60,200 bases of DNA from IMG/VR virus record IMGVR_UViG_3300044701_002545, positions 1-60,200 of that record; one strand, 5' to 3'. Below the pieces are notes generated by a model that searched no databases, was not told the origin of the DNA, and saw only the letters and a list, made by a program, of their open reading frames with translations. Positions 2,325 through 15,763 of the stretch are shown piece after piece. The position numbers and the translations under genes are program-made. Position 1 is the first letter of the stretch; the number at the start of each line of letters is the position of its first letter. This DNA is from a virus. Taxonomy: Duplodnaviria; Caudoviricetes.

Positions 2325-2337
2325 AGCACTCAATCAA

Positions 2338-2748
2338 ATGGCAACTCGCGCTCGCATCGGTCTTGAACTTCCTGATGGTTCTATTCTCTCTGCATACCAC
2401 CATTGGGATGGTTATGAGTCTTGGTTGGGTCGCATTCTGAACACTCACTACAACACTAAAGAGAAAGCTGCTGAACTGATTGACGGTGGCGATATGAGCT
2501 CTGCTTGGACTAATGCTGGTTTCAAGAATGAAACTGTAGAGCAAGGTCCGCTGTATTATTCTCAGCGTGGCGAAGATTGCCCTCCTCGTCTTGATGCTGA
2601 TCTGTGTGAGTATCTTCTGCCCAACAACAGCGAAGAGTATGCCTATGTCTTCCGCAATGGTGAGTGGGTGTGCTATAATATGAATCAGTTTGACGATTCC
2701 AAACTTCCCGAAATCGTTGAAATCCCTTCTGGTGCTCTTGCTGTCTGA
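2338..2748 (+). CDS. Phage hypothetical protein (MATRARIG...YHHWDGY)
   Basis: 136-aa ORF directly after element copy 1. Confidence 0.8.
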   Translation: MATRARIGLELPDGSILSAYHHWDGYESWLGRILNTHYNTKEKAAELIDGGDMSSAWTNAGFKNETVEQGPLYYSQRGEDCPPRLDADLCEYLLPNNSEEYAYVFRNGEWVCYNMNQFDDSKLPEIVEIPSGALAV

Positions 2749-2751
2749 TCT

Positions 2752-2943
2752 ATGAAAACTTCTACTTCTGTTGGTATTATTTTTGCTGCTATTGTTCTTG
2801 TAACTGTCAGCATATTCTTTGAAGCAGCATTGCTTGGACTGATTCTATCTTGGTTTAATGTTTATTTGACTTTCTGGCAGAATCTTGCTATTGTGGTTCT
2901 TGCCAATATGATTTTCAAAAACACTGGGAGCTATTCTAAATGA
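2752..2943 (+). CDS. Small membrane protein
   Basis: Two hydrophobic segments in 63 aa. Confidence 0.65.
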   Translation: MKTSTSVGIIFAAIVLVTVSIFFEAALLGLILSWFNVYLTFWQNLAIVVLANMIFKNTGSYSK

Positions 2944-3104
2944 ATCGCAATCGTAAATATGTGATTGCTGGACTGATTGGTTTTGCTGCTATTGTTGGTT
3001 GGAATATCTTTCTAATCCAACGTGATGATAGAATGTTTGATGCCTACTATCGTCAACAAGCGATAGAAAATCTCAAGAAACCTCCCAGTGCTGAGATTCG
3101 GTGA
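2940..3104 (+). CDS. Small single-pass membrane protein, 54 aa
   Basis: MNRNRKYVIAGLIGFAAIVGWNIFLI...; ATGA overlap with the previous gene. Confidence 0.6.
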   Translation: MNRNRKYVIAGLIGFAAIVGWNIFLIQRDDRMFDAYYRQQAIENLKKPPSAEIR

Positions 3105-3199
3105 TTTACTTTCTTATTATTTCTGCAGCATTTGGATGGTTCTTTTTTGTATTATTCTCCAAACATTTTGATTACCTAGACGATAGAAAAAACAAATGA
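3101..3199 (+). CDS. Putative hydrophobic micropeptide, 32 aa
   Basis: GTG start; both ends overlap neighbours by 4 nt (GTGA, ATGA). Confidence 0.45.
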   Translation: MIYFLIISAAFGWFFFVLFSKHFDYLDDRKNK

Positions 3200-3333
3200 T
3201 TCCAAAACGTATCCGAGAACTGATTATGAACGCTGAACGTGAGAAGATTGCCCGTGAGTTTTGGGAGGAAATTGAACGTCTTGCTGCTGAAAAGGAAGTG
3301 ACTGTTGACTATTATCTTGCGGAGTTTTACTGA
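3196..3333 (+). CDS. Small hypothetical protein, 45 aa (...EVTVDYYLAEFY)
   Basis: Hand-read, translationally coupled ORF. Confidence 0.6.
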   Translation: MIPKRIRELIMNAEREKIAREFWEEIERLAAEKEVTVDYYLAEFY

Positions 3334-3452
3334 TGACTTTTATTCTTGGTGTAGGCCTTGGAATCCTAGCAACAATGGGATTTGCACTTCTTTCGATGGC
3401 ATCTAATGGTGATGATGCAGATGATATTGACAACAACACTGATTTTCGTTAA
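3333..3452 (+). CDS. Putative membrane micropeptide, 39 aa
   Basis: MTFILGVGLGILATMGFALLSMA plus an acidic tail; TGATG coupling. Confidence 0.45.
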   Translation: MTFILGVGLGILATMGFALLSMASNGDDADDIDNNTDFR

Positions 3453-3455
3453 ACT
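3427..3455 (+). promoter_or_regulatory. sigma70-like promoter
   Basis: TTGACA-N17-TAAACT, followed by AGGAG upstream of the ORF at 3479. Confidence 0.6.
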
Positions 3456-3478
3456 AAAGGAGTAATTTACAAAATACA

Positions 3479-3721
3479 ATGGCACAAAAGTTTCTCTACA
3501 TTGTTGACCACTACATTCCTTTTCCTTCTAGTGAGTATGGTGGACTTTGGAATGTCATTGCAGAAGATGACAATGAATGTTTCGATTTGATTTCTGCTGA
3601 AGATGAAGGTAATTTCTATGAGCAGCACTATACTGCTCTTCGTGAAAACATTCTAAATGCAAGGACTTATGCTCTTGCTGAAGATGTAGAATCCTCTATT
3701 GTTGAATCTTTTACCACCTGA
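3479..3721 (+). CDS. Phage hypothetical protein
   Basis: 80-aa acidic ORF (YIVDHYIPFPSSEYGGLW). Confidence 0.75.
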   Translation: MAQKFLYIVDHYIPFPSSEYGGLWNVIAEDDNECFDLISAEDEGNFYEQHYTALRENILNARTYALAEDVESSIVESFTT

Positions 3722-3882
3722 TGATTGACACTTCTCTAAATCTCCTTGAGTTTAATCTCAAGGAACAGTATCAAGATCGTATCAACTATCTTCAGCAAAA
3801 GATTACGGAGCAACAACATGAAATCTTGCGACTCCAAGAACAAATCAAATATATGTCAAAAGACAGATTTTACGATTGCTGA
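3721..3882 (+). CDS. Small coiled-coil protein, 53 aa
   Basis: Hand-read ORF coupled by TGATG. Confidence 0.55.
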   Translation: MIDTSLNLLEFNLKEQYQDRINYLQQKITEQQHEILRLQEQIKYMSKDRFYDC

Positions 3883-3980
3883 TAAATAATGATGCTTGTT
3901 TGTGGTTATTCAAGCAAAGAGATTTGGGGCAGAAATGCCCCTTTTCTTGTATAAATAAGTATAACCACAAACAAAGCAGT
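3882..3980 (+). promoter_or_regulatory. Structured leader of homing endonuclease: two late promoters, a terminator-like hairpin and a long inverted repeat
   Basis: ATAAATA 3882-88; arm TGCTTGTTTGTGGTTAT 3893-3909; GGGGCA-GAAA-TGCCCC-TTTT 3926-45; TATAAATA 3950-57; complementary arm ATAACCACAAACAAAGCA 3961-78. Confidence 0.75.
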
Positions 3981-4592
3981 ATGAATAACAAGTATTATAC
4001 TTACGCATATTTGCGTGAAGATGGAACACCTTATTACATAGGAAAGGGTAAAGGATATAGGGCTTATTATAAAAATAGAAGGAAGCAAATACAACCACCA
4101 AAAGATAGAAGAAGAATCATCTTTCTCAAACAAAATTTAACTGAAGAAGAAGCATTTAGACACGAAATCTATATGATTTCTGTATTTGGCAGAAAAGATT
4201 TAGGAACTGGTATTCTTCGTAATAGAACTGGTGGTGGAGAAGGAACAGCAAATATGATACTAAGTGAGGAACATAAGAAGTCCTTACTTGCGGGTAGATT
4301 AAATTATTCTTTTACTGACGAAGTGAAAGAAAAAATTAGAAATACTTTAAAAGAAAAAAATATCAAACCACCATCAAGAAAAGGTATAAACCATAACGAA
4401 CAATATTTTAATAAAAGATGTAAAAAGTTGTATGAAATTACAAGTCCAGACGGTAAAAAATATACTACAAATAGATTAAAAAACTTTTGTAAAATGAATA
4501 ATTTGAGTTGTGGTTGTATGTGTGAAGTTGCTAATGGAAAATATAAACAACATAAAGGGTGGACAGTTAAAATACTGGAACAAAAACCTTGA
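3981..4592 (+). CDS. Free-standing GIY-YIG-like (Seg-type) homing endonuclease with NUMOD-like C-terminal modules
   Basis: YYTYAYLREDGTPYYIGKG...R...E...N-TGGGEG; basic C-terminus; AT-rich; own late promoter. Start placed at ATG 3981. Confidence 0.85.
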   Translation: MNNKYYTYAYLREDGTPYYIGKGKGYRAYYKNRRKQIQPPKDRRRIIFLKQNLTEEEAFRHEIYMISVFGRKDLGTGILRNRTGGGEGTANMILSEEHKKSLLAGRLNYSFTDEVKEKIRNTLKEKNIKPPSRKGINHNEQYFNKRCKKLYEITSPDGKKYTTNRLKNFCKMNNLSCGCMCEVANGKYKQHKGWTVKILEQKP

Positions 4593-4617
4593 CTTCCTTT
4601 CGGTTTTTTGTTATTAT
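4582..4617 (+). promoter_or_regulatory. sigma70-like promoter at the 3' end of the endonuclease gene (-35 in hairpin loop)
   Basis: TTGACT(4589-94)-N17-TATTAT(4612-17) with TGn extension; arms AAAAACC/GGTTTTT. Confidence 0.6.
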
Positions 4618-4638
4618 ATCTTTGTTGAATAAAAAAAC

Positions 4639-4926
4639 TTGGAACTTCCATCTTCTTTCTTTCATTCTCCTCCAGACGGATATTATTATGAAGCAACTGA
4701 GTTCAAACGAAATGTTGTCAGTATTTGGTTATGTAATACTCGTAAGTTTGACTATAACAATGGTGCTCCTACAAGAACTATTCATTCCTTTTACAACACC
4801 AAAACCAGAGAATACTTCTCCCCAGTCAACAGTAAGACCATCGGTGCTTGTGTAAATATCAAGGAAACGCGGAACTATACCGCGATGCCAATTAAACAAT
4901 CTCCACTAGATGCGTTTTTTGTATGA
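4639..4926 (+). CDS. Phage hypothetical protein (TTG start)
   Basis: 95-aa ORF, ATGA-coupled to the next gene. Confidence 0.65.
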   Translation: MELPSSFFHSPPDGYYYEATEFKRNVVSIWLCNTRKFDYNNGAPTRTIHSFYNTKTREYFSPVNSKTIGACVNIKETRNYTAMPIKQSPLDAFFV

Positions 4927-5162
4927 GTTACGAACCACAAGTCAATCACTATGTTAAGTGGACAAAAGGTGTTGAGGGTTGGATTTACTTCAAGGATCAA
5001 GAATATGTTACCATCGAGTACACTGTTCGTCCTAAAGATGAAATAAACCTTGAATGCTGTCCTATTCACAAAAATGAAAGATTGCTTGTGATTTGCTATA
5101 ATAAACAGTGGAAAGAGTTGGAGTTTGTAAAGTCGAGAGAGTCTGTATATTCTGAAGTTTAA
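4923..5162 (+). CDS. Hypothetical protein
   Basis: 79-aa ORF in operon. Confidence 0.7.
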   Translation: MSYEPQVNHYVKWTKGVEGWIYFKDQEYVTIEYTVRPKDEINLECCPIHKNERLLVICYNKQWKELEFVKSRESVYSEV

Positions 5163-5166
5163 GTAA

Positions 5167-5751
5167 ATGATTCACGCATTATTTCCATCTATAGTGATAG
5201 ATGATGTTTGTCAAGATTTCTCTGCAGTTCAACCAGAATTGATTGACTGGATCTATTGGTATAGGGGAAAAAATCCAGATAGCATACATATATCAAATCG
5301 CGGGGGATGGCAATCTCCCGCATATTTTCATAATGAGGAATCTTTTCAGCCATTTCTGAAATATATTTTGGACAACTTCCAAAATATGACTGCTTGCTAC
5401 AAAACAAAGATGAAACTCCTCAATATGTGGATTAACATTAACAGAAAGGGAGACTATAATACAGAGCACGATCATCCTGTATCTGATCTCTCTGCTGTCT
5501 TATGGATAAAGACGCCCAAAGATTGTGGTGGATTAGTGTTTCCTTCTCCAAAATCTTTTGTTCAACATAAAATTATAGATGTTCTTGATGAGGAGATTCG
5601 TAATCAAACAAAGTGTGTTTATTCCACTATGTTTCATCCAGAAGAAGGTAAGACGGTTATATTTCCATCAAATATGAGGCATTCCGTTGAAATGAACAAC
5701 TCTGATGAGGATAGAATATCAATAGCATTTAATATGGAGTTCTGTGATTGA
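5167..5751 (+). CDS. 2OG-Fe(II) oxygenase family protein (TIGR02466-like)
   Basis: SNRGGWQS, WININ..GDYN..HDH, FPS.M.H.V, RISIAFN motifs. Confidence 0.85.
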   Translation: MIHALFPSIVIDDVCQDFSAVQPELIDWIYWYRGKNPDSIHISNRGGWQSPAYFHNEESFQPFLKYILDNFQNMTACYKTKMKLLNMWININRKGDYNTEHDHPVSDLSAVLWIKTPKDCGGLVFPSPKSFVQHKIIDVLDEEIRNQTKCVYSTMFHPEEGKTVIFPSNMRHSVEMNNSDEDRISIAFNMEFCD

Positions 5752-5753
5752 TT

Positions 5754-6017
5754 ATGAAAAGAAAAAGTGCATGGAGATTGCTAGCTAAAGCATTGGGAGA
5801 AAAGGCAAGCAAGGATAATAGAGAGGCAGATATTGTTGCAGGCATTCGTCTTGTAATGTTTATGTCTATTCTTATCACAAATTGTTTCATCGTAGCAAAT
5901 GCAATTCGTCACTGGAATGATGAAACTAAAGTAGAAATAATTCTAGAAACTTCTGGTATGCCAGAATATCACGTTCCACCATCCAATTATTCAAATAGAA
6001 CTATTGAGTTTGAATAA
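5754..6017 (+). CDS. Hypothetical membrane protein
   Basis: WRLLAKALGEKA...DIVAGIR followed by a hydrophobic helix. Confidence 0.7.
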   Translation: MKRKSAWRLLAKALGEKASKDNREADIVAGIRLVMFMSILITNCFIVANAIRHWNDETKVEIILETSGMPEYHVPPSNYSNRTIEFE

Positions 6018-6043
6018 AATAAATATCTAAAAACATCCTGAAT

Positions 6044-6235
6044 ATGAAGACATTTCAACAGTTCATGGAACAAACTCCACACATGGAGCCTAACTTCTAT
6101 AGTCAGCAAATTGCAAAGCGTCAGGCAGCACAAAAAGCATCGCAAATCAAACACGTTCACCAAGAGATTGGTGCAGAAGCAAGGGCACAACAGTCTCAAA
6201 AAAGAGCAGAAATGAAGGCAATCATGAGTCGTTGA
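6044..6235 (+). CDS. Small late protein, possible internal head protein
   Basis: ATAAATA at 6019-25; N-terminus MKTFQQFMEQ resembles the T4 capsid-targeting sequence. Confidence 0.6.
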   Translation: MKTFQQFMEQTPHMEPNFYSQQIAKRQAAQKASQIKHVHQEIGAEARAQQSQKRAEMKAIMSR

Positions 6236-6240
6236 TAAAA

Positions 6241-6271
6241 ATTGGGCCATGTAAAGTGTCCTAATAATGTA
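6241..6271 (+). repeat. 28-bp element, copy 2 (divergent)
   Basis: ATTGGGCCATGTAAAGTGTCCTAATAAT|GTA; 5 nt after the stop at 6235. Confidence 0.85.
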
Positions 6272-6285
6272 ATCACCCATTCACT

Positions 6286-6444
6286 ATGGATTTCTTCGAC
6301 GACATTCAAATTGAAGAGTTGGAAAACTTTGATTTTGTTGGAGATATGAATGAATTTCTTTTTGATGAGGAAGATCGACTGTATCCAACTCTAAACTCAA
6401 AGTTTGATATTAACGAATATCTTAACGGAAACATTGATTACTGA
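6286..6444 (+). CDS. Small highly acidic protein, 52 aa
   Basis: MDFFDDIQIEELENFDFVGDMNEFLFDEED...; 16 D/E versus 2 K/R. Confidence 0.65.
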   Translation: MDFFDDIQIEELENFDFVGDMNEFLFDEEDRLYPTLNSKFDINEYLNGNIDY

Positions 6445-6504
6445 CAGTTTACAGACTGTCCACTAAACTCTCCACACTGACCCTTTAACCTTTATTCTGG
6501 CCAC

Positions 6505-6705
6505 ATGATTGAACAAATCCCCAACGTGCTTCCTCACATCAAAGAACTGAAAGAAGCATGGCATCGTCAAGATTTCGTATTCACTAAGCAACAACAAGAA
6601 GAATACGATCTCTTGCTTGCCACTCGCCGCGAACGTGTCAAACAGTTTTATGCTGAAGGACGTGTGTTCAAAGGTTCTTACAAAGCAAAGGAAGAGGAGT
6701 TCTAA
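6505..6705 (+). CDS. Hypothetical protein
   Basis: 66-aa ORF; TATTCT 6 nt upstream of the ATG suggests a leaderless mRNA. Confidence 0.7.
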   Translation: MIEQIPNVLPHIKELKEAWHRQDFVFTKQQQEEYDLLLATRRERVKQFYAEGRVFKGSYKAKEEEF

Positions 6706-6732
6706 ATACTAAAAAAGTGTTTAGATAGTCCA

Positions 6733-7311
6733 ATGCGTACCTTTTCACAATTCATGTCTCTCTGCGAGAAATCTGATTCTGATGCTGCTAAACAACTTGG
6801 CTGGGGTGGTGGTGCTTCCATCACTCGCCAAGGTGAAGGTGGAAGAATCGGTAAAGAACGCAAGAAAACAGAAGCAGAGAGACGTAGAACTAAGAGAGGA
6901 CCAGGTGGCACAACTGTTCCTGCAAAGGAATACAAACCACGCAAAGATATTGGTCAACAGCGTAGTTCTGACACTAGAACACAAGCACCAACACAAGAGC
7001 GTGGTTCTGCAAGAGAAAGACAACTAGCTGCAGCAAAAGAAGAAAGAAGAAAAGCAGCACTTGCTAGAAGAGCAGCAAAGTCTGGCGGAGAGACTTCAAC
7101 AGCAAAACCTAAATCAAGAGATTTAGAAAAGCAAGCATCTAAACTTCTCACCAAGAAGAAAGCAGAGGCACCAAAGGGCAAACCCATTGAGAGAACAACC
7201 AAGCGCGAATATACCAGAGATGAGAAGAAGAAAATGGTAAGAGCTGGTAAGCGTCTACATGCAGACATCATCAAAGGTAGAGACCTTCCAGCATCGAAGT
7301 ACCAACCCTGA
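6733..7311 (+). CDS. Highly basic late protein, possible internal head/DNA-binding protein
   Basis: CTAAATA at 6702-08; N-terminus MRTFSQFMSLCE; very K/R-rich. Confidence 0.7.
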   Translation: MRTFSQFMSLCEKSDSDAAKQLGWGGGASITRQGEGGRIGKERKKTEAERRRTKRGPGGTTVPAKEYKPRKDIGQQRSSDTRTQAPTQERGSARERQLAAAKEERRKAALARRAAKSGGETSTAKPKSRDLEKQASKLLTKKKAEAPKGKPIERTTKREYTRDEKKKMVRAGKRLHADIIKGRDLPASKYQP

Positions 7312-7316
7312 CATTT

Positions 7317-7347
7317 ACTGGGCCCTGTAAAGTGTCCTAGTAGTATA
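7317..7347 (+). repeat. 28-bp element, copy 3
   Basis: ACTGGGCCCTGTAAAGTGTCCTAGTAGT|ATA; 5 nt after the stop at 7311. Confidence 0.95.
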
Positions 7348-7365
7348 AGGACAACACTCAAAACA

Positions 7366-7521
7366 ATGCTCTGGCAAGATCGCAACGGAACCTGGCACAG
7401 TACAGTTTCTCCCATCGACATTAAAATCGAACAAGCGATGATTGCTGAGAACGCTAACAAAGTCTGGGAAGAAAAAGAGCGTTCTGGTGATTGGCTTTTC
7501 GATGAAATGTTCGGGGGTTGA
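7366..7521 (+). CDS. Small hypothetical protein, 51 aa (MLWQDRNGTWHST...)
   Basis: Hand-read ORF directly after element copy 3. Confidence 0.65.
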   Translation: MLWQDRNGTWHSTVSPIDIKIEQAMIAENANKVWEEKERSGDWLFDEMFGG

Positions 7522-7533
7522 TTAAACCTCACC

Positions 7534-7569
7534 AGCACGCTCAGATTGACCTCTAAGCGTGCTATTTTT
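7534..7569 (+). terminator. Hairpin plus T-run (possible terminator; TTGACC in loop)
   Basis: AGCACGCT...AGCGTGCT followed by ATTTTT. Confidence 0.5.
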
Positions 7570-7597
7570 GTCTTTACCTATCAAACCACTGAGAACA

Positions 7598-7798
7598 ATG
7601 AATTACATCCAAATCCCTGATTATGCCTTTGATGATGTTATTCGCCTTCTTGAGGAAGGTGTTAATGTCGCCAAGAATGTTGATTTTAGTTCTAATCCTG
7701 AAGCTGAGAGAAGTCCATCCTTTGCAAATGGTTACAATCGTGCTACAATGCAAGGTGTGATTGATAAACTGAACTACTACAAACAGAAAGATAACTGA
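7598..7798 (+). CDS. Hypothetical protein
   Basis: MNYIQIPDYAFDDVIRLL...; ATG at 7598 preferred. Confidence 0.65.
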   Translation: MNYIQIPDYAFDDVIRLLEEGVNVAKNVDFSSNPEAERSPSFANGYNRATMQGVIDKLNYYKQKDN

Positions 7799-7799
7799 T

Positions 7800-7830
7800 A
7801 CTGGGCCCTGCAAAGTGTCCTAATACTACA
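7800..7830 (+). repeat. 28-bp element, copy 4
   Basis: ACTGGGCCCTGCAAAGTGTCCTAATACT|ACA(TG); 1 nt after the stop. Confidence 0.92.
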
Positions 7831-9080
7831 TGATGATTCCAATGCAAATCCAACTCCGTCCGCATCAAGAACGTGGTGTTGCTGCTATGCAACAACATGC
7901 TAAAGGTCAGATCATTGTTCCTACTGGCGGCGGTAAGACTCTCAAGATGATCTATGATGCTCTGCGTGAGTTGCAGTCTGAAACTCCCCAGACTATTGTA
8001 GTTGTTGCTCCTCGCATTCTGCTTGCTGAGCAGCTGTCTTCTGAGTTTCTGGAGTTCATCACTAACGCTGAAGTTCTGCACGTTCACAGTGGCGAAACTC
8101 ACCACGTTAGCACTACCAAACCTGATGACATTGCTGTTCACGCTGGTATGTGTGCTGCTGCTAATCGTCACCAACTGATCTTCACCACCTACAACTCTCT
8201 TTCGCGTCTGCAAGTGGCAGGAATTGATGTGGATACGATCTACTTTGATGAGGCACATAACAGTGTTCAGCGTCACTTTTTCCCTGCAACTGAGCACTTT
8301 GCTGCTAATGCACGTCGCTGCTATTTCTTCACTGCAACTCCCAAGCATTCTCTGGCAGTTGGCAAACCTGGGATGAATGATGCTGCTGTGTATGGTCAAG
8401 TCATCTGCAAAGTTCCTGCTCCTGAACTTGTCGAAGGCGGCTACATTGTGCCTCCTAAAGTGATTGTCAAGCAACTGGAGATGGTGAAGGGTAAGCAGAC
8501 CAACTTCGACCGCGATTCTGAGAATCTGCTGGAAACGATTGATGACAACAAGGTTGGCAAGATTCTGATTTGTGCTAAGGCAACCAAGCAAATCGTATCG
8601 CTGGTGACTGAAACTGATTTCTGTTTCCAACTGGAATGTCGCGGTTATTCCTGGATGTATATTACTGCTAAGACTGGTGCAGTTATTGACGGCAAGAAAG
8701 TCAATCGTGAGGTGTTCTTTGACACTCTGAGCGCATGGGGTAAGGATAACGATAAGAAGTTCGTTGTGCTTCACCACAGCATCCTAGCTGAAGGTATCAA
8801 CGTCAGCGGTCTGGAAGCAGTGCTGTTCCTGCGTAACATGGACTTCATTGGTATCAGTCAGACCATCGGCCGTTGCATCCGTCTGCATCACGATGATGCC
8901 AAAGGTATGCGCGATGGACGTATCCAACCTGGCAACCTGAGTCAGTATAGCAAATCGTTCGGTCTTGTGTGTATCCCTGTGTACTCTAAGGTTGGTATCA
9001 GCACCGCTCGCAGTGTGCAGGCAGTTGTTGATACTATCTTCCAGAAGGGAGAACCTGCCATCAGTGTGGTGAGGCGGTGA
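7830..9080 (+). CDS. Superfamily 2 DEAH-box helicase (ResIII-like)
   Basis: LRPHQ Q-motif, PTGGGKT Walker A, DEAH, TAT, QTIGRCIR motif VI. Confidence 0.92.
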   Translation: MMIPMQIQLRPHQERGVAAMQQHAKGQIIVPTGGGKTLKMIYDALRELQSETPQTIVVVAPRILLAEQLSSEFLEFITNAEVLHVHSGETHHVSTTKPDDIAVHAGMCAAANRHQLIFTTYNSLSRLQVAGIDVDTIYFDEAHNSVQRHFFPATEHFAANARRCYFFTATPKHSLAVGKPGMNDAAVYGQVICKVPAPELVEGGYIVPPKVIVKQLEMVKGKQTNFDRDSENLLETIDDNKVGKILICAKATKQIVSLVTETDFCFQLECRGYSWMYITAKTGAVIDGKKVNREVFFDTLSAWGKDNDKKFVVLHHSILAEGINVSGLEAVLFLRNMDFIGISQTIGRCIRLHHDDAKGMRDGRIQPGNLSQYSKSFGLVCIPVYSKVGISTARSVQAVVDTIFQKGEPAISVVRR

Positions 9081-9193
9081 GTCTCACCCAAGACTCAAGT
9101 GGCCACCTAGCCCGAAACCTTGATTTTTCTGCAATTTCACTGCAACCGACCTAGAACCCATCCACCGCAACAAAAACACCGATTTTTCTCAAA

Positions 9194-9724
9194 ATGAACT
9201 CCAAGAACTGGAAAGCCTACTGTCAAACTACATTCAACTCTCTGGGTGCTAATGTAGTGAATTGGGGCAACCCTGATTTCTTCCGACCCATCACACGATT
9301 GTACTACATTGGTGTGTTTGATTGTGGTCAGGTTAATCACCTTGGTCTGATAAGTGAGCAAGCAAAGGATAATCCTAGCGAGCGAACTCATGATCACTGT
9401 TTGTCTCCACAATTCATCGGCCGAATGATCATGGACAATCCCGACAAATACCTGTCTGATTATGATGTATTTGAGAATCTGTTCTGGTTGTCTTGCTCCA
9501 CGATTACAGTCACAAAGGATGAGAACAAGCGGCTGAGTATGTTGACTGAGAATGACGGAATTGACTATAAAGTTCACGTTCCAACTAACCTTAAGTATCA
9601 ACATCTTGACATCGAACTGTATCAGAAGACTGGTGCAAGATGGGAAAATGCTGTAGAATACGACGATAACATTATTCCAGCGCCTACAGATTTGCTGGAA
9701 TATGAGAAGAGGTTTCTGGTATGA
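9194..9724 (+). CDS. Hypothetical protein, possible His-Me-finger-like nuclease
   Basis: 176 aa; THDHCLSP...TVTKDEN pattern (function speculative). Confidence 0.6.
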   Translation: MNSKNWKAYCQTTFNSLGANVVNWGNPDFFRPITRLYYIGVFDCGQVNHLGLISEQAKDNPSERTHDHCLSPQFIGRMIMDNPDKYLSDYDVFENLFWLSCSTITVTKDENKRLSMLTENDGIDYKVHVPTNLKYQHLDIELYQKTGARWENAVEYDDNIIPAPTDLLEYEKRFLV

Positions 9725-9897
9725 AAGAGGGATTTATTATCGGCAAAGGTAACTATGCAGCCGTGCCCTATGGTAATCAACTGATGGTTATACATAACGG
9801 TCAACAGTTGAAGGTGTGTAGGACTGAAAGCTCTGCACGAAAGTTCATTGATGACCACAAGAAGGGTAAGAGTGTAGCAAAGTTGCCCGTTGATTGA
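9721..9897 (+). CDS. Small hypothetical protein, 58 aa (MKEGFIIGKGNYAAVPYGNQ...)
   Basis: Hand-read ORF with ATGA overlap. Confidence 0.65.
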   Translation: MKEGFIIGKGNYAAVPYGNQLMVIHNGQQLKVCRTESSARKFIDDHKKGKSVAKLPVD

Positions 9898-9898
9898 A

Positions 9899-9929
9899 AC
9901 TGGGCCCTTGAAAGTGTATTAGTAGTGTC
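9899..9929 (+). repeat. 28-bp element, copy 5
   Basis: ACTGGGCCCTTGAAAGTGTATTAGTAGT|GTC; 1 nt after the stop. Confidence 0.95.
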
Positions 9930-9959
9930 AGGAGCACCCTGCTCCACAATCAATACCAA

Positions 9960-10250
9960 ATGCAAGACAAAATCGCACAGGTTAAGACTTTCGTGAATGA
10001 GAATGTTTCCAATGAACTTCTCAAGAATGTCGGTCTCTCTACTGCTATTCTGTTTGTCGTGATTGTTGCTCAACTTCTTATTCATGAGGTTGTTGCAGTT
10101 GTTGATGCAATCCCAGTGTTCAATGGTGTTATGGAACTCGTTGGACTTTTTGCTTTCATTAACTTCACCCGCAACAATCTAATCACTGCAGAACAGCGTA
10201 ACGCACTGGTTGATAAAGTCAAGAGCACTTACAATCAAGTCGTTGAGTGA
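9960..10250 (+). CDS. CAAD-domain / CurT (CURT1)-like membrane protein
   Basis: TM1-VVAVVDAIPVFNGVMELVGL-TM2-F.R.NL...EQR..L..K matches the CAAD/CURT1 pattern (IP....ELVG...R). Confidence 0.75.
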   Translation: MQDKIAQVKTFVNENVSNELLKNVGLSTAILFVVIVAQLLIHEVVAVVDAIPVFNGVMELVGLFAFINFTRNNLITAEQRNALVDKVKSTYNQVVE

Positions 10251-10270
10251 GGGGTTTATCCCCTTTTTTT
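10250..10270 (+). terminator. Rho-independent terminator
   Basis: AGGGG-TTTAT-CCCCT-TTTTTT. Confidence 0.75.
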
Positions 10271-10281
10271 ATGTCTAAGTA

Positions 10282-10312
10282 ACTGGGCCCTTGAAAGTGT
10301 CCCTATAGTATG
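10282..10312 (+). repeat. 28-bp element, copy 6
   Basis: ACTGGGCCCTTGAAAGTGTCCCTATAGT|ATG; follows the terminator. Confidence 0.95.
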
Positions 10313-11233
10313 AGCATCAAGCAAATGACGAAAAATCTACATTTGGAGCATCCTGAAGATGAGATCCTGACTGGCAATCTGTCAGTTCTCGATTGGTTCT
10401 CTGAGGTAGATTCTACTATCAGTGTCAAAATGGATGGAAGCCCTGCTATTGTGTGGGGTACAAATCCGCAGAATGGTAAGTTCTTTGTCTGCACCAAAGC
10501 AGCATTTAACAAGAAGAAAATCCGCCTTTGCTATAATCAAGATGACATCTTCACTCATTTTGGCCATCAACCTGGTGTAGCACAGATTCTCATTTTCTGT
10601 CTTGATTTTCTGCCTCGCACTCAACAAGTGCTGCAAGGTGACTTTATTGGTTTTGGAAGTGGTCTTGATACATTCAAACCGCAACTGATTACTTACAAGT
10701 TTCCTGCTCCAGTTCGTCAGGACATTATCATCGCTCCGCATACAATCTACAGCGGTGCTGATGACATTCGTGAGATGACTGCTGCTCCTTTGATGAACAA
10801 ACTGATCAGCACTAAAAATTGTCTGTTCGTTCAGCCTTCTGTGGAACTGAACCCTTATCGTGAAGATTTGGAGGATGTGTGTAAGTTTGCCAAGCAAATG
10901 AGCACTCTATGTGAGTTTGTGTCTGATCGCAAGGCATCACAAATCAAAAAAGAGATCAATGCCTGCATCCGTGAGCAAAAGGTCGTGGATGAGAATGAAA
11001 TTGCAGAGAAATGTGATTGTGATGTGAATGTCCTACGGCTTTGGAAGTTGGTGAAGTCTATCAAGGATGATTTGTTCCTGTTCATTCACGAAATGGATCA
11101 GATTGAATGTTCTATCAATGGTGAGGATAGTTTCCACGAAGGTTATGTTATCAGCAACAAGTATGGGACACATAAAGTAGTGGACCGTGAAACATTCTCT
11201 TATGCAAACTTTGTGACTCCCAAGAGCTGGTAA
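10310..11233 (+). CDS. Ligase-fold (covalent nucleotidyltransferase-like) protein of unknown substrate
   Basis: HLEHPED, KMDG (motif I KxDG), QGD, EGYV (motif IV), KVVDR (motif V). Start is 10310 or 10325. Confidence 0.7.
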   Translation: MSIKQMTKNLHLEHPEDEILTGNLSVLDWFSEVDSTISVKMDGSPAIVWGTNPQNGKFFVCTKAAFNKKKIRLCYNQDDIFTHFGHQPGVAQILIFCLDFLPRTQQVLQGDFIGFGSGLDTFKPQLITYKFPAPVRQDIIIAPHTIYSGADDIREMTAAPLMNKLISTKNCLFVQPSVELNPYREDLEDVCKFAKQMSTLCEFVSDRKASQIKKEINACIREQKVVDENEIAEKCDCDVNVLRLWKLVKSIKDDLFLFIHEMDQIECSINGEDSFHEGYVISNKYGTHKVVDRETFSYANFVTPKSW

Positions 11234-11263
11234 CTGGGCCCTTTAAAGTGTACCAGTAGTATG
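11233..11263 (+). repeat. 28-bp element, copy 7
   Basis: ACTGGGCCCTTTAAAGTGTACCAGTAGT|ATG; overlaps the last base of TAA. Confidence 0.95.
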
Positions 11264-11341
11264 AGAACCACACATCGCTTCCAAACTTTCAAAGAAGCAC
11301 TCAGCTTTCTGATGAATCAATTTATTCGTTTAGAAGAATGA
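11261..11341 (+). CDS. Putative 26-aa peptide starting at the element ATG
   Basis: MRTTHRFQTFKEALSFLMNQFIRLEE*; ATGA-coupled to 11338. Confidence 0.45.
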   Translation: MRTTHRFQTFKEALSFLMNQFIRLEE

Positions 11342-11571
11342 CTGACAACAACACGGACCACATTGAAAAGTATGTGCAACGAATCTCTGAACTTCGTGAA
11401 AGTTTAATTAACAAATACGAATATGATTACCATGAGGAGGATGATTATGATCCAGAATATGAAAAGAGGCGTATTCATTCGTTGAGTGATGATGAACTAA
11501 TCTACGAGTTCATGGAAGTTTATCAACTTGATGATGAATCTGAAATCGAAAAAAATATTGGTTTTTATTGA
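11338..11571 (+). CDS. Acidic hypothetical protein
   Basis: 77 aa, D/E/Y-rich. Confidence 0.65.
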   Translation: MTDNNTDHIEKYVQRISELRESLINKYEYDYHEEDDYDPEYEKRRIHSLSDDELIYEFMEVYQLDDESEIEKNIGFY

Positions 11572-11574
11572 CAA

Positions 11575-11829
11575 ATGACTTACTCTAACCTCTCAAAGAT
11601 CCGTCCTAAACTGAGAACAACTGGTCGTGTGTCTGGTAACTTCGGACGCAACAAAGTATCAGCAGGTTCATCACTCAATGACATCGGTGGTGATGGTAAC
11701 ATAGGTGCCACACAAGATGATTATTTGAATCGCCTGTATTATGCTTTTGATAGCACTACCGATCCTAAACTTCAACGCTTCATTTATTCCGAAATTCGTA
11801 AGATTCACATTCAGAGAGGTACTTGGTAG
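11575..11829 (+). CDS. Hypothetical protein
   Basis: 84-aa ORF (SNLSKIRPKLRTTGRVSGNFG). Confidence 0.7.
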   Translation: MTYSNLSKIRPKLRTTGRVSGNFGRNKVSAGSSLNDIGGDGNIGATQDDYLNRLYYAFDSTTDPKLQRFIYSEIRKIHIQRGTW

Positions 11830-11831
11830 TG

Positions 11832-12152
11832 ATGCTACATGACATCGAAGTTCGCCCTGGTCCGAATAGTGGTTACTTTCAATACTACACAGAAACTGTA
11901 GAAGCTGCAACATCACAAGATGCAGTTGCTAGAGTACAACGTGCAAACCCTGGATGTAGTGTAAGGTGCTGTCGTTCCTATAACAAATCGAGTGGCAATT
12001 CATCATCATCAGATTCTGGAGATGTTGGTGGTTATTTGATACTTGGTGCAATTCTGTTTGGTATCTGGTTGCTGGTAGAATACTGGTGGATTGTTGTTCC
12101 TGTTGCTGTAATTCTTGGACTTCTTGTATGGTATGGATGGAACAGTGATTGA
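11832..12152 (+). CDS. Membrane-anchored hypothetical protein
   Basis: Soluble N-domain, Ser linker, two C-terminal hydrophobic helices. Confidence 0.7.
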   Translation: MLHDIEVRPGPNSGYFQYYTETVEAATSQDAVARVQRANPGCSVRCCRSYNKSSGNSSSSDSGDVGGYLILGAILFGIWLLVEYWWIVVPVAVILGLLVWYGWNSD

Positions 12153-12153
12153 A

Positions 12154-12184
12154 ACTGGGCCCTTGAAAGTGTACCAGTAGTATG
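12154..12184 (+). repeat. 28-bp element, copy 8
   Basis: ACTGGGCCCTTGAAAGTGTACCAGTAGT|ATG; 1 nt after the stop. Confidence 0.95.
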
Positions 12185-12403
12185 AACAACAACATCGTTT
12201 CCGAAATCTACTCCTACCACACCAACTGGAAGGAAGGTAAAGTCAACCAAATGTGGATTCAGCAAGTGAACGACAAGTTCATTGCTATTGCATACAATCC
12301 CGAAAAGAATGTGTCGATGCCTATGTCCAAACCCCGCACATCTTACCGTGAAACTCTAGAATGGGTTCGCGGTTGGTGTGGAACTTTCTGTCCTCTTTAC
12401 TGA
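12182..12403 (+). CDS. Hypothetical protein
   Basis: 73-aa ORF starting at the element ATG. Confidence 0.7.
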   Translation: MNNNIVSEIYSYHTNWKEGKVNQMWIQQVNDKFIAIAYNPEKNVSMPMSKPRTSYRETLEWVRGWCGTFCPLY

Positions 12404-12413
12404 TTAAAGTATT

Positions 12414-12620
12414 ATGAGCATCACTTTTACTAACGATCAAAAACAGTATCTTATTTCAGAACTTCAATCTAAAATTAAAGAAATTATAGATCAAAAGATT
12501 GAAATTGTAGAGCAATTTGATGATGATGGTGAATGTTATGAAGATGATTTCTATATTGGTAGTTCTTTTGATCTCGAACTTCAACTAAATTGTGCTCTGG
12601 TCGAAACCATTCTAAAGTGA
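12414..12620 (+). CDS. Acidic hypothetical protein
   Basis: 68-aa ORF. Confidence 0.6.
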   Translation: MSITFTNDQKQYLISELQSKIKEIIDQKIEIVEQFDDDGECYEDDFYIGSSFDLELQLNCALVETILK

Positions 12621-12631
12621 GGTATTGAAGT

Positions 12632-12775
12632 ATGAAATACGAAGTCAAATTGTATCAAGGCGGCAAAACTTTCATTGAGGAAGTGTATGCTCCTGACCCC
12701 AAATCTGCAAGAGAAACTGCACTCATTCGCAACCCATCTTGTAAAGTTGTTGGCGTCAATGTCAGCTTCAAATAA
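12632..12775 (+). CDS. Small hypothetical protein, 47 aa (MKYEVKLYQGGKTFIEEVYA...)
   Basis: Hand-read ORF with GAGGT Shine-Dalgarno upstream. Confidence 0.7.
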   Translation: MKYEVKLYQGGKTFIEEVYAPDPKSARETALIRNPSCKVVGVNVSFK

Positions 12776-12779
12776 AGTT

Positions 12780-12810
12780 ACTGGGCCCTTTAAACTGTAT
12801 CAGTAGTATG
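12780..12810 (+). repeat. 28-bp element, copy 9
   Basis: ACTGGGCCCTTTAAACTGTATCAGTAGT|ATG. Confidence 0.93.
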
Positions 12811-12996
12811 ACAAGCAACAATCCCGATAAAATGTTCATTCTCAACGATGCTGCAAAGAATGATCCTGCAGTGCAAATGGCAATTCAATCTTATATGAAA
12901 CGCTTGCAGAAAGAAGAAGAGTATCGCGCACAAGTTCGTGCTGGATTGATTAAACCTCAACCCACAACTGTTTGGAACATTTCTGACCGCGATTGA
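12808..12996 (+). CDS. Hypothetical protein
   Basis: 62-aa ORF starting at the element ATG. Confidence 0.65.
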   Translation: MTSNNPDKMFILNDAAKNDPAVQMAIQSYMKRLQKEEEYRAQVRAGLIKPQPTTVWNISDRD

Positions 12997-13148
12997 TGGC
13001 ACGTTCATTAACATTCAAGAACCCATCAAAAGTGAAAACAATTCTTCTCATTTTTGCTGTTGCGATGATACTCTCGCCAGGAGTTCGTAACATCACATCG
13101 AACACATTGCACACTGTTGCCGACATTATTGCACCCAGCAGTAACTGA
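12996..13148 (+). CDS. Small membrane protein, 50 aa
   Basis: Hand-read; TGATG coupling; ILLIFAVAMILSP hydrophobic core. Confidence 0.6.
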   Translation: MARSLTFKNPSKVKTILLIFAVAMILSPGVRNITSNTLHTVADIIAPSSN

Positions 13149-13149
13149 A

Positions 13150-13180
13150 ACTGGGCCCTTGAAAGTGTACCAATAGTATG
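13150..13180 (+). repeat. 28-bp element, copy 10
   Basis: ACTGGGCCCTTGAAAGTGTACCAATAGT|ATG. Confidence 0.95.
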
Positions 13181-13465
13181 AACATCAACGACCTCTTCGA
13201 AAGCAAGAAACTCTCTGAGCAACTTGCACTGGAAAACTATCAACAACGTAATGGTGTTGTTGATTATCGCTTGCCTGGAGTTTGCAATCACTACTTCCCA
13301 ACCTGGGATCTTCAAGGTAACAAAACCAGAGAAGTTTGCCTGACCTGTAAAGTTAGCAAGACTGTAAAAGGACAGCTGCGTTATACTTTCCAGATCAACG
13401 GTAAGCGTATTGCAGAGAAGCAAATCCCTGCCGAGTTTAATGCTCTCGGAGTCTTCACTCACTGA
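13178..13465 (+). CDS. Hypothetical protein filling a single-gene cassette
   Basis: 95 aa; its only Met is the element ATG; stop is 1 nt before the next copy. Confidence 0.7.
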   Translation: MNINDLFESKKLSEQLALENYQQRNGVVDYRLPGVCNHYFPTWDLQGNKTREVCLTCKVSKTVKGQLRYTFQINGKRIAEKQIPAEFNALGVFTH

Positions 13466-13466
13466 A

Positions 13467-13497
13467 ACTGGGCCCTTTAAAGTGTACCAGTAGTATC
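13467..13497 (+). repeat. 28-bp element, copy 11
   Basis: ACTGGGCCCTTTAAAGTGTACCAGTAGT|ATC. Confidence 0.95.
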
Positions 13498-13516
13498 ACC
13501 ACTGAACTTTCCCACA

Positions 13517-13828
13517 ATGCGTAAAATCGAATCACAAATGAATCAAGCCATCAGCACCGAGACTGATTGGAAAAAGGACAATACTCAAGTTGTTAACATT
13601 GAAGGTGTATCTTTCGTCTATCTGTATAACAACCTGATTGCAATGGTAGGTGATACCTGGCTCGAATTGTTTGATGGGGGATGGAAGACTAATACCACCA
13701 AAGCTAGACTGAACTCAATCCTTCAAGAACATGGATCTGGTGAGCGAGTCTACCAGAAAAACTTTGAGTGGTTCATCTCTACTAAAGATGGCGAAGTTCC
13801 CTTTGGTAATGGTATCAAACTAGATTGA
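13517..13828 (+). CDS. Phage hypothetical protein (MRKIE...DGGWKTNTTKARLN)
   Basis: 103-aa ORF after element copy 11. Confidence 0.8.
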   Translation: MRKIESQMNQAISTETDWKKDNTQVVNIEGVSFVYLYNNLIAMVGDTWLELFDGGWKTNTTKARLNSILQEHGSGERVYQKNFEWFISTKDGEVPFGNGIKLD

Positions 13829-14318
13829 TCTTTTCTAGAATCTTATAACCTTTGTGATGATTTACCTTTGTTAATGTCTTATGAAGATTTGACCTATTCA
13901 AGTCATTTTCTTCACACCATTTAGCAAGGTTCTTTATCACGAAGGTTTTGTTAGTTTCTATGTGTAAAATCTTCCATTCTGCTGCCTTATTTCTACCTAT
14001 GCTGTCTCTTGAAAGTTCACAGTTTTGTTTGTGACTTACCCACTCTAAATTATCTAAATTGTTGTTTTTTGGATTGTTATCTTTGTGATGAACATCTGAT
14101 AGATTGTGTGGATTAGGCAAATAAGTTTCTGCTACTAATCTATGCACAGATTTCTTTCTTTGATTATACAATCCCACTTGTATTCTCACTCTAGCATAAC
14201 CTCTCTCATCTATACTTTCTTTTAGTTTGCGAGGTGATTTGTAGTTCTTTCCTGTACTATAAATGCCACCATCTTTGTCAACTAAAATGTTACTATAGAG
14301 TGGATGTTGTTTCATCAT
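13815..14318 (-). CDS. Free-standing HNH homing endonuclease (NUMOD4/I-HmuI-like)
   Basis: GY.RV...VHRLVAETYLPNP...VHHKDNNPKNNNLDNLEWVSHKQN; upstream TGCTATAATAAATA on the minus strand. Confidence 0.88.
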   Translation of the reverse strand: MMKQHPLYSNILVDKDGGIYSTGKNYKSPRKLKESIDERGYARVRIQVGLYNQRKKSVHRLVAETYLPNPHNLSDVHHKDNNPKNNNLDNLEWVSHKQNCELSRDSIGRNKAAEWKILHIETNKTFVIKNLAKWCEENDLNRSNLHKTLTKVNHHKGYKILEKINLV

Positions 14319-14373
14319 TAAGCACCTAACTTTGTAGTATTTATTATAGCACACTCACATTTGATGAATAACA

Positions 14374-14404
14374 ACTGGGCCCTTGAAAGTGTCCCTATAG
14401 TATG
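14374..14404 (+). repeat. 28-bp element, copy 12
   Basis: ACTGGGCCCTTGAAAGTGTCCCTATAGT|ATG (identical to copy 6). Confidence 0.95.
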
Positions 14405-14581
14405 AGCAACCAACTTTCCCAAATCTGCCTCGACAAAGCACAACAAATCGCAAACGAAATCAACGGTGATTTGTATTATGTTCCCCAGGAAGATATTGAT
14501 CAACTGTTATCTCAACTGACTGAAGACAATGTAGATCAAATTGCTGAAGAACTTGCTGAATTAGCATATCAATTCAACTGA
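14402..14581 (+). CDS. Small acidic protein, 59 aa (MSNQLSQICLDKAQQ...)
   Basis: Hand-read; its only Met is the element ATG. Confidence 0.65.
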   Translation: MSNQLSQICLDKAQQIANEINGDLYYVPQEDIDQLLSQLTEDNVDQIAEELAELAYQFN

Positions 14582-14586
14582 GTTAA

Positions 14587-14760
14587 ATGATGACTGATAC
14601 CGACAAAGTATTTGCTCTAACTGAACTTCTGGGTGATGTAATTCACACTCTTGAAATGAAACAGTATGACATCGAAGATGCTACTCTGTCTTATGAATGT
14701 GTGACTGATGCTGATAAGTTTCACCAAAAGATGATCGACATTCTTCATTCTCAAGACTGA
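14587..14760 (+). CDS. Small acidic protein, 57 aa
   Basis: Hand-read ORF MMTDTDKVFALTELLG... Confidence 0.6.
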   Translation: MMTDTDKVFALTELLGDVIHTLEMKQYDIEDATLSYECVTDADKFHQKMIDILHSQD

Positions 14761-14767
14761 ATCCTAA

Positions 14768-14905
14768 ATGACATTCACAATCCGTTATTTCACTCCTTAT
14801 CAACAACAATGGAGGACACAAAGTTTCTCTACATTAGAGGAAGCAAATCGTATGGTTGAGTTCTATCGCTCTTGTGGATCTCCTGCTGAATTAATCAACA
14901 ACTGA
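14768..14905 (+). CDS. Small hypothetical protein, 45 aa (MTFTIRYFTPYQQQWRTQSF...)
   Basis: Hand-read ORF. Confidence 0.65.
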   Translation: MTFTIRYFTPYQQQWRTQSFSTLEEANRMVEFYRSCGSPAELINN

Positions 14906-14912
14906 ACCTTAA

Positions 14913-15140
14913 ATGATTACTCTTACCACTGTTAATCTGCCGTTCATTATTAACAAGGAAAAGACCAAAGATGAAAGCGATGAAGGTATGTTTGCTCTTT
15001 ACTTTTACAGTCGAAAGATTATACACAACAACAAACTAAGGTATAAGTTTGAACCCCTAAGATTCGATGGTAAGCAAGCAAGATTCAAGACAAGAAAGGA
15101 TGCAAAACGTTATGCACAGTACAGATTAGGCATTGATTGA
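14913..15140 (+). CDS. Basic hypothetical protein
   Basis: 75-aa ORF before the terminator. Confidence 0.6.
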   Translation: MITLTTVNLPFIINKEKTKDESDEGMFALYFYSRKIIHNNKLRYKFEPLRFDGKQARFKTRKDAKRYAQYRLGID

Positions 15141-15151
15141 TTATACTGTAG

Positions 15152-15178
15152 AGACCCCACTCTTAGGGGTCTTTTTTT
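15152..15178 (+). terminator. Rho-independent terminator
   Basis: AGACCCC-ACTCTTA-GGGGTCT-TTTTTT. Confidence 0.8.
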
Positions 15179-15390
15179 ATGCTTCGCTACGCTCTGTCTT
15201 CGACTTTTATGGCAAAATAAGGTAAAAAAACAATAAAAAGGTTTTAAAAAGCCTTTTTTAATTATAGCTGAGCGATTGTTATGTGTGATACTTATTGTTA
15301 TTGAAAGGTGATAATGATAAGAATTCGTATCATTTAAGACCTGATACTTATGTCCTTTAAATCCTTCTGGGGGTCGTTATCTTACGTAGC

Positions 15391-15419
15391 AAGCTATCAC
15401 ACTCCCCCACAAATGTCAA
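15391..15419 (-). promoter_or_regulatory. Leftward sigma70-like promoter pointing into non-coding DNA
   Basis: Minus strand TTGACA-N17-TAGCTT with TGn extension. Confidence 0.55.
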
Positions 15420-15494
15420 GCACCCCCACGTCACAAAATCCCCACAGATCCCCCACATAAATCCACCGACTCCAAATAAATATCCCCAGTCCCA

Positions 15495-15523
15495 TTGACA
15501 TTTACGCCCACAAGTCCTACAAT
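15495..15523 (+). promoter_or_regulatory. sigma70-like promoter
   Basis: TTGACA-N17-TACAAT; AGGAG before ATG 15550. Confidence 0.75.
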
Positions 15524-15549
15524 ACCCATATACACTCAGGAGCGCACTT

Positions 15550-15723
15550 ATGTCAGTAGCATACACCCAGGCACAGAAGCAGCGTTATAGGATCACTCTG
15601 GATCTATCAGTGTTCGGTGACTTCGACCCACATCAGATTGACTGGGAGAAGTTATTCAAGCTAGAACCTGCTGAGAAGTGTGAGGCTTATGTTGAGGACT
15701 TAAGTACACCTGATCGTTGGTGA
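15550..15723 (+). CDS. Small hypothetical protein, 57 aa (MSVAYTQAQKQRYRITLDL...)
   Basis: Hand-read ORF with promoter and Shine-Dalgarno. Confidence 0.7.
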   Translation: MSVAYTQAQKQRYRITLDLSVFGDFDPHQIDWEKLFKLEPAEKCEAYVEDLSTPDRW

Positions 15724-15732
15724 GTAACAGAT

Positions 15733-15763
15733 AGTGGGCCCTGTAAAGTGTCCTAATAGTATG
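15733..15763 (+). repeat. 28-bp element, copy 13
   Basis: AGTGGGCCCTGTAAAGTGTCCTAATAGT|ATG. Confidence 0.92.

Follow-up and report, generated by a model that had tools for sequence, protein, structure and literature searches.

The stretch of DNA analysed here (the window) is a linear IMG/VR contig of 60.2 kb with a completeness estimate of 28%, and it carries a short gene of the CAAD family flanked by a promoter-like box, a leader hairpin and a terminator-like hairpin (Table 1). Based on PHROGs matches, the same contig encodes baseplate wedge proteins, a 4059-aa structural protein, a large terminase and a tail sheath. The large terminase shares 86.9% identity with its counterpart in Synechococcus phage S-SCSM1 (Kyanoviridae, host WH 7803) and 85-86% with those in S-SM2, SynMITS9220M01 and Bellamy. 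Judged by these genes, the window is a 60-kb piece of a T4-like cyanomyovirus (Kyanoviridae) with marine Synechococcus as the host group. Kyano_Gp96 and a 2OG-Fe(II) oxygenase (both Pfam matches) are found among the small genes 5' of the structural block, near the CAAD gene; together with the structural and packaging genes and the terminase identity, this context places the CAAD gene in a plastic, non-structural part of the genome.

Two giant ORFs lie within the structural block, at window positions 21717-33896 (+, 4059 aa) and 39701-47170 (+, 2489 aa). Over most of their length, the former resembles phrog_2885, annotated as a baseplate wedge subunit, and the latter phrog_358, a family of unknown function. 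An assignment of the 4059-aa ORF as an N4-like virion RNA polymerase was considered and rejected in favour of a giant structural protein of the Kyanoviridae type (phrog_2885).

Table 1. Features at the CAAD locus, in window coordinates
Feature	Position	Strand	Description
Promoter-like box	9898..9928	+	Repeated 20-mer at 9898-9917; core AAAGTGT-N5-TAGTGT at 9911-9928
Leader hairpin	9931..9945	+	6-bp stem, 3-nt loop; unpaired A/C-rich bases between it and the ATG
CAAD-family gene	9960..10250	+	ATG start, 96 codons and stop; predicted N-helix, two-helix hydrophobic hairpin and C-helix
Intrinsic-terminator-like hairpin and T run	10249..10272	+	Stem 10249-10265; overlaps the stop codon
Next promoter-like box copy	10281..10311	+	Starts the following unit
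DUF6267 gene	10310..11233	+	PF19782, 253.5 bits; listed as context, with no claim of partnership

The 96-aa protein matched the Pfam CAAD model (PF14159) with 58.9 bits (E 4.4e-16), the curated gathering threshold being 30.7 bits, and its residues 25-95 align with profile positions 14-84 (of 85). CAAD was also the sole Pfam match in all 45 family members scanned (45/45). On this profile evidence the phage protein is a clear CAAD member. A Kyte-Doolittle hydropathy plot shows one hydrophobic block at residues ~24-70, interrupted at D49-A-I-P52-V-F-N-G56. The AlphaFold2 model, computed with 45 family sequences, consists of four helices (2-15, 18-49, 52-74 and 77-95); with a mean pLDDT of 81.7 and a pTM of 0.38, the helices themselves are confident and their packing is uncertain. 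When phage and cellular relatives are aligned (21 rows), only P52, G62 and R80 are invariant, and they correspond to the CAAD signature of a proline in the turn, a glycine in the second hydrophobic helix and an arginine just after it.

These results agree with most of what a preliminary description of the locus had read from the sequence. It had proposed a phage-encoded gene, which is confirmed by the structural and packaging genes of Kyanoviridae type that the contig also carries, and a 96-aa ORF of the CAAD type, for which the suggested HMM search gave the score above. The layout it described, a first membrane helix, an IP....ELVG turn, a second membrane helix, and then an arginine and a C-terminal helix, is likewise recovered by the hydropathy plot, the invariant residues and the four-helix model. 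The amphipathic N-terminal helix it described did not hold up: the hydrophobic moment of residues 2-24 is 0.20-0.24, a value equalled by 34-50% of 2000 shuffles. Across the family the moment of this helix is 0.15-0.22, and values of 0.51-0.53 were found only in 11-residue windows at 14-25. Both terminal helices are conserved in the 20-sequence family alignment, where K9, F11, E14, N15, V16, E19, L21, K22 and N23 are invariant in the N-helix, and Q79, R80 and K86 in the C-helix. No family matched the CAAD protein in PHROGs or NCBIfam, a PDB profile search returned no relative (best match E 0.55), and Foldseek against BFVD gave 0 matches at E <= 0.001.

Next, we analysed the signals that surround the gene. 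The 20-mer that starts the upstream box has 11 copies in the window (<=3 mismatches), all on the + strand and between 2293 and 14392, and 0 were found in 100 shuffles. Its core, AAAGTGT-N5-TAGT(A/G)T, occurs 10 times in the forward and 0 times in the reverse direction in the window, and 9 times on one strand within a 12-kb stretch of a 112-kb relative; the cultured phage S-SCSM1 has 0 copies. Of 60 related loci, 32 have the strict core ahead of the CAAD gene and 51 have a relaxed form. The 5' flank of the core (10-13 bases) is lineage-specific, yet the same in all copies within one genome, which points to a co-evolving phage-specific transcription factor or to gene conversion between cassettes. 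The box contains TTGAAA-like and TAGTAT-like hexamers 9 nt apart, and a sigma-70-like consensus scan of positions 7000-15000 gave 16 sites, with none of the box copies among them. From its position and its TANNNT end, we infer that the box is promoter-like.

Copies of the motif (10-11, on one strand) are spread over window positions 2293-15762, for example at 9898, 10281, 11232, 12153, 13149 and 14373. Six of the 11 copies have an ATG whose distance from the first base of the 20-mer is exactly 29 nt (window 10310, 11261, 12182, 13178 and others) and which overlaps the TAGTAT end, implying either leaderless or very-short-leader transcripts, or true starts further downstream.

The CAAD gene alone carries a hairpin between box and ATG. 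Its folding energy is -8.9 kcal/mol (z -2.9), with 3 of 200 shuffles as good. We aligned 33 of the 44 distinct leaders, leaving out 2 loci without the element and 9 with a longer or differently spaced leader. In this alignment 96.9% of cells pair, and 2 of the 5 pairs have both partners changed (9 cells); neither the paired fraction nor the covariation score was reached in any of 500 shuffles (0/500), and the -3 slide control also gave 2 pairs with two-sided changes, at 73% pairing. The compensatory changes thus lend modest support to a 5-bp leader helix. A GTG or CTG codon 7 codons 5' of the ATG was considered as the true start and rejected because the codon varies (CTG, GTG, CCG, GCG, ACG) in step with the pairing of the hairpin. 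Downstream, the terminator-like hairpin has a folding energy of -9.2 kcal/mol (z -2.1), and such a site is present <=75 nt 3' of the gene in 50 of 61 related loci.

The genes on either side of this unit vary. Over 64 loci, the 5' neighbour belongs to 13 different families, including a helicase, three kinds of DNA methylase and a 2OG-Fe(II) oxygenase, and the DUF6267 family is the commonest 3' neighbour (40/64, absent in 24/64). The terminator stem-loop and the repeated promoter-like motif flank variable ORFs, which is the arrangement that characterises PeSL-type cassettes. Two further points of the preliminary description are therefore upheld by the box-to-terminator unit amid shuffled small genes and by the 11-copy 20-mer and the hairpin with its T run, namely a single-gene cassette and an own upstream element with a terminator downstream. 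Pfam matches to a lysis-type gene (lysozyme, peptidase or other) are absent from the 54 + strand ORFs of 1-19.7 kb; lysis-type Pfam families were also missing from the 25 neighbour families, and the surroundings do not correspond to a class II holin cassette.

Some neighbours deserve mention in their own right. CP12 lies directly 5' of the CAAD gene in 4 loci (L012:276-485 and three more), and a 2Fe-2S ferredoxin in 1 locus (L041:5268-5555); both are known cyanophage auxiliary genes. The DUF6267 gene (phrog_455) contains a K-M-D-G word, which we take to be reminiscent of motif I of ligases and capping enzymes; its protein has no PDB or NCBIfam relative.

In order to gain insights into the distribution of the gene, we searched protein and viral sequence collections. 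A word-index search of 5.8 billion proteins gave 180 matches, near relatives from metagenomes, at E <= 0.001 among 181 candidates; at least 120 of these are 73-95% identical to the query and carry PF14159. Within IMG/VR, exact peptide words detected the gene on 53 contigs and a family alignment on 64, including contigs of 51, 67 and 112 kb. The 96-codon frame is intact in all viral copies with an aligned start (61/61, 46 distinct alleles). The median dN/dS (Nei-Gojobori) is 0.19 and the maximum 0.47, calculated from the 1025 of 1035 pairs with dS between 0.05 and 3. By these values the CAAD gene is a real gene under purifying selection. In the ESM Atlas the sequence falls into an 87-member cluster that is automatically named CAAD-containing and of whose labelled members 91% are viral; automatic annotation had therefore already met these proteins as CAAD.

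The 50,697 GenBank phage records, a search scope in which records very near the window may be hidden, gave no match by tblastn of the protein at E 1e-3 or E 10, by blastn of the gene with its flanks, or by tblastn of a host-type CAAD protein. The blastn negative is the firmer one because zero matches at E 10 suggests low-complexity masking of the hydrophobic query in tblastn. This result is in line with the earlier remark that the gene stands outside the classic cyanophage genes, and it implies that the gene is dispensable for cyanomyoviruses in general. We found no paper linking the CAAD/CurT family to a phage; supplementary catalogues of cyanophage or virome studies may list the family. A search for psbA (PF00124) on 5 CAAD-bearing viral fragments found none, and these fragments, each only 10-52% complete, make the result uninformative.

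To place the phage protein among its relatives, a profile of 20 phage sequences was compared with 1.84 billion representatives, which yielded 55 proteins at E <= 0.001. Seven of these reached E <= 1e-10, six being short proteins (94-108 aa) matched over nearly their full length and the seventh a fusion ORF (P0138); another short full-length relative (P0139) followed at E 1.9e-10. The representatives ranked below the short ones are longer proteins with the CAAD match at the C-terminus. Two relatives, P0132 and P0133, are 55% and 48% identical to the window protein and come from metagenome contigs in which a regulatory motif of this type is also present. Single-protein scans of IMG/VR with the distant relatives P0137, P0133 and P0136 returned nothing, and a metagenome scan with an alignment of distant relatives returned mostly the close family. 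The fusion ORF (P0138, 71 aa, metagenome) combines ~40 last residues that equal the C-terminal half of a CAAD protein with ~30 first residues similar to the start of a gene family found 3' of the CAAD gene in two loci, and appears to have arisen by deletion or recombination at a short word common to both parts.

Next, we investigated the CAAD genes of the hosts. The genome scan for host-type sequences used a narrower alignment, the first having been too diverse. It confirmed 557 of 599 matched genome stretches as relatives, and the best cellular matches form one family, hereafter paralogue A. The best 80 of the 557 confirmed stretches are mostly recorded under Synechococcus (including WH7803, WH 8017 and several MIT strains), Cyanobium and Prochlorococcus. 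All five picocyanobacterial genomes searched (5/5) carry 1-3 CAAD genes above the Pfam cut-off, with two in WH7803. The phage gene thus combines a location in a phage genome with a homologue in the host group, as is expected of an auxiliary gene. Stand-alone CAAD genes of marine Synechococcus, Cyanobium and Prochlorococcus score 57-78 bits, and a Synechococcus elongatus control genome was also positive in the CAAD search. Three loci (L071, L072 and L130) carry a typical picocyanobacterial CAAD gene under the titles of Bordetella parapertussis, Salipiger bermudensis and Acidovorax caeni MAGs and are probably mis-binned or mislabelled.

Passages of two studies (PMC6395441, PMC9950537) describe CurT/CURT1 homologues in picocyanobacteria as doubtful or absent, and one of them describes Prochlorococcus and S. 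elongatus as lacking the curved convergence zones made by CurT. In contrast to this literature, our genome searches indicate that CAAD-family genes do occur in these hosts, a statement at the level of the family that does not imply CurT function.

The phage protein is 33% identical to WH7803 paralogue A (124 aa, CAAD at 46-124) over 67 aa and 24% identical to WH7803 paralogue B over 74 aa. The host paralogues carry N-terminal extensions of 45-100 residues, which the phage protein lacks (96 aa, CAAD from residue 25). A quick tree (123 rows, 120 columns) groups the phage sequences with the short relatives and gives each of the two host paralogues a starred clade of its own. For a careful tree (64 rows), ten very long-branched representatives were dropped and near-duplicates thinned. 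Here, the phage sequences and short relatives form a starred clade (98/91), as does paralogue A (96/91), and the two together make up one side of a 94/82 branch that is not starred. The comparison with host proteins suggested in the preliminary description therefore places the phage clade beside paralogue A and not within it, so the phage gene is an old separate lineage and not a recent capture. The nearest cellular kin of this lineage is probably the hosts' paralogue A. Eight positions (V34, Q38, P52, G62, N73, L74, T76 and R80) are >=90% conserved and identical in both clades, and five are fixed differently in the phage clade and paralogue A (K22/G, V47/T, D49/N, N55/P and F69/W), some of them in the hairpin turn. 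A complex prediction for the phage protein with paralogue A (residues 50-135) gave a score of 0.00 and a mark of 0.32, which speaks neither for nor against binding.

Taken together, comparative analysis indicates that the gene is an auxiliary gene of an uncultured T4-like Synechococcus myovirus lineage, encoding a minimal membrane protein of the CAAD/CurT family. This suggests a so-far-undescribed viral route to the host photosynthetic apparatus. According to the Pfam description of PF14159, CAAD hairpins anchor proteins in thylakoids. Extrapolating from the family, we see about an even chance that, in infected cells, the phage protein enters the host thylakoid and alters or stabilises the way this membrane is organised. 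In such a scenario, the CAAD gene would be transcribed as a separate unit, alongside the small non-structural genes around it. Both hydrophobic helices would enter the thylakoid membrane as a hairpin with both ends cytoplasmic, as in the CAAD family, and the wedge-like hairpin, alone or as an oligomer, could change or stabilise the organisation of the photosynthetic membrane in infection. The altered or stabilised membrane might then help to sustain the light-driven energy supply, much as other cyanophage photosynthesis genes do.

A more far-reaching proposal, in which a regulator-less "semi-reticulon" encoded by a lineage of marine cyanomyoviruses actively reshapes the thylakoids of hosts reported to be without a canonical CurT and creates or maintains, for example, curved zones for the insertion of phage D1, appears possible and distinctly more speculative. 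CURT1/CurT are portrayed in passages of PMC9950537 as predicted four-helix proteins (two transmembrane and two soluble helices) that induce or stabilise thylakoid curvature. The same passages attribute curvature by CURT1, for which no structure is solved, probably to a wedge-shaped hairpin and/or the N-helix, together with oligomers. Confidence in a thylakoid role of the phage protein as a whole is lowered by its N-helix, one candidate curvature-inducing part of CURT1, which is not amphipathic here, by an identity to the two host paralogues of only 33% and 24%, and by the doubtful or absent CurT described for these hosts.

Among the alternatives, the phage protein might interfere with or hijack a host protein, co-assembling with paralogue A and either capping or displacing its oligomers as a dominant negative or taking over its anchored cargo. 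This carries the poisoning of host CurT oligomers suggested in the preliminary description over to the paralogue that these hosts actually possess. The position of the phage clade beside paralogue A (94/82), the common membrane core with its eight identical positions and the missing N-terminal extension are all compatible with this explanation. The five positions fixed otherwise, partly in the hairpin turn, argue against it, and an overall identity of 33% and a long separate evolution speak rather for an independent job. Oligomers of paralogue A are, moreover, putative, and doubtful or absent CurT in picocyanobacteria means that there may be no canonical host CurT oligomer to poison. We therefore regard interference as unlikely.

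Next in rank, and likewise unlikely in our judgement, comes a membrane anchor or scaffold whose short N- and C-helices dock another phage or host protein at the thylakoid. Tethers of this kind define the Pfam CAAD family, as in the aminoacyl-tRNA synthetases after which it is named and in which the hairpin serves only to tie the enzyme to the thylakoid, the invariant residues of both terminal helices exceed the conservation that a mere spacer would need, and DUF6267 is the 3' neighbour in 40 of 64 loci. However, there are 13 kinds of 5' neighbour, DUF6267 is missing from 24 of 64 loci, and the protein is free-standing, without any fusion. Least probable of all is a thylakoid-unrelated job for a captured CAAD hairpin, such as a class-II-type holin or antiholin, superinfection exclusion or ion leakage: a small phage-encoded protein with two hydrophobic helices that goes undetected in isolated phages, as accessory membrane proteins often do, would fit, but the + strand ORFs of 1-19.7 kb hold no Pfam-matched lysis gene, the neighbours are a helicase, DNA methylases, CP12 and similar genes, the family signature is retained under purifying selection, and the C-terminus is not strongly basic.

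To our knowledge, the photosynthesis genes of cyanophages encode reaction-centre proteins, pigment functions, electron carriers and metabolic switches. A conserved phage gene from a family of thylakoid anchors and curvature proteins would add the membrane itself to these viral targets. If the protein does reshape thylakoids, it would be the first virus-encoded architecture factor of photosynthetic membranes in cyanophages and would represent a class of auxiliary genes whose point of action is the shape of the membrane and not electron flow or metabolism. What appears to be new is a known family in a new carrier, where it forms a distinct, stripped-down clade with a putative role that is directly testable. 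As a naturally minimal member of 96 aa that lacks a regulatory extension, the protein could be used to ask which parts of CurT/CURT1 bend membranes. It also highlights the stand-alone CAAD genes of Prochlorococcus and marine Synechococcus, a so far unstudied set of paralogues. Since the gene is frequent in environmental viral contigs and undetected in the isolates searched, its study will require heterologous expression or targeted isolation.

CurT (Synechocystis slr0483) and CURT1A-D (Arabidopsis) are thylakoid curvature proteins. The phage protein belongs to the same Pfam family and is similarly small, and it shares their predicted architecture, a pair of membrane helices with a soluble helix at either end, as laid out in passages of PMC9950537. 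It differs in its N-helix, which is not amphipathic, and in being encoded by a virus whose hosts are reported, in the passages cited above (PMC6395441, PMC9950537), to be without a clear CurT. The likeness to CurT/CURT1 is one of Pfam family and predicted helix plan and not of orthology. By profile search and tree, the nearest cellular relatives are the picocyanobacterial paralogue A proteins (for example that of WH7803, 124 aa), with which the phage protein has the eight positions in common; the host protein is set apart by its ~45-aa N-terminal extension, an identity of 33% over 67 aa and the five positions fixed otherwise. The CAAD domain of aminoacyl-tRNA synthetases matches the same family model, and there it is an insertion or extension of a large enzyme, whereas the phage hairpin is the whole protein.

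At the level of gene organisation, the locus resembles the PeSL (promoter-early, stem-loop) cassettes outlined in PMC2839356 and PMC4122927 for T4-like phages of enterobacteria and vibrios. In both cases small variable genes are separated by a terminator hairpin and, after it, a repeated promoter-like motif, and neighbours are shuffled among related genomes. PeSLs are described as sparse in cyanophage S-PM2 in a passage of PMC4503421. The motif found here differs from that of PeSLs in not being sigma-70-like and in having a lineage-specific 5' half.

The classical photosynthesis genes of cyanophages (psbA, psbD, hli, petE/F, cpeT and CP12) are close to their host copies. Like them, the CAAD gene is a host-type gene of the photosynthetic apparatus in a cyanomyovirus; unlike them, it is far more diverged from the host copy and was undetected in the 50,697 GenBank phage records searched. 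Its target would be the architecture of the membrane rather than a component of electron transfer or a pigment.
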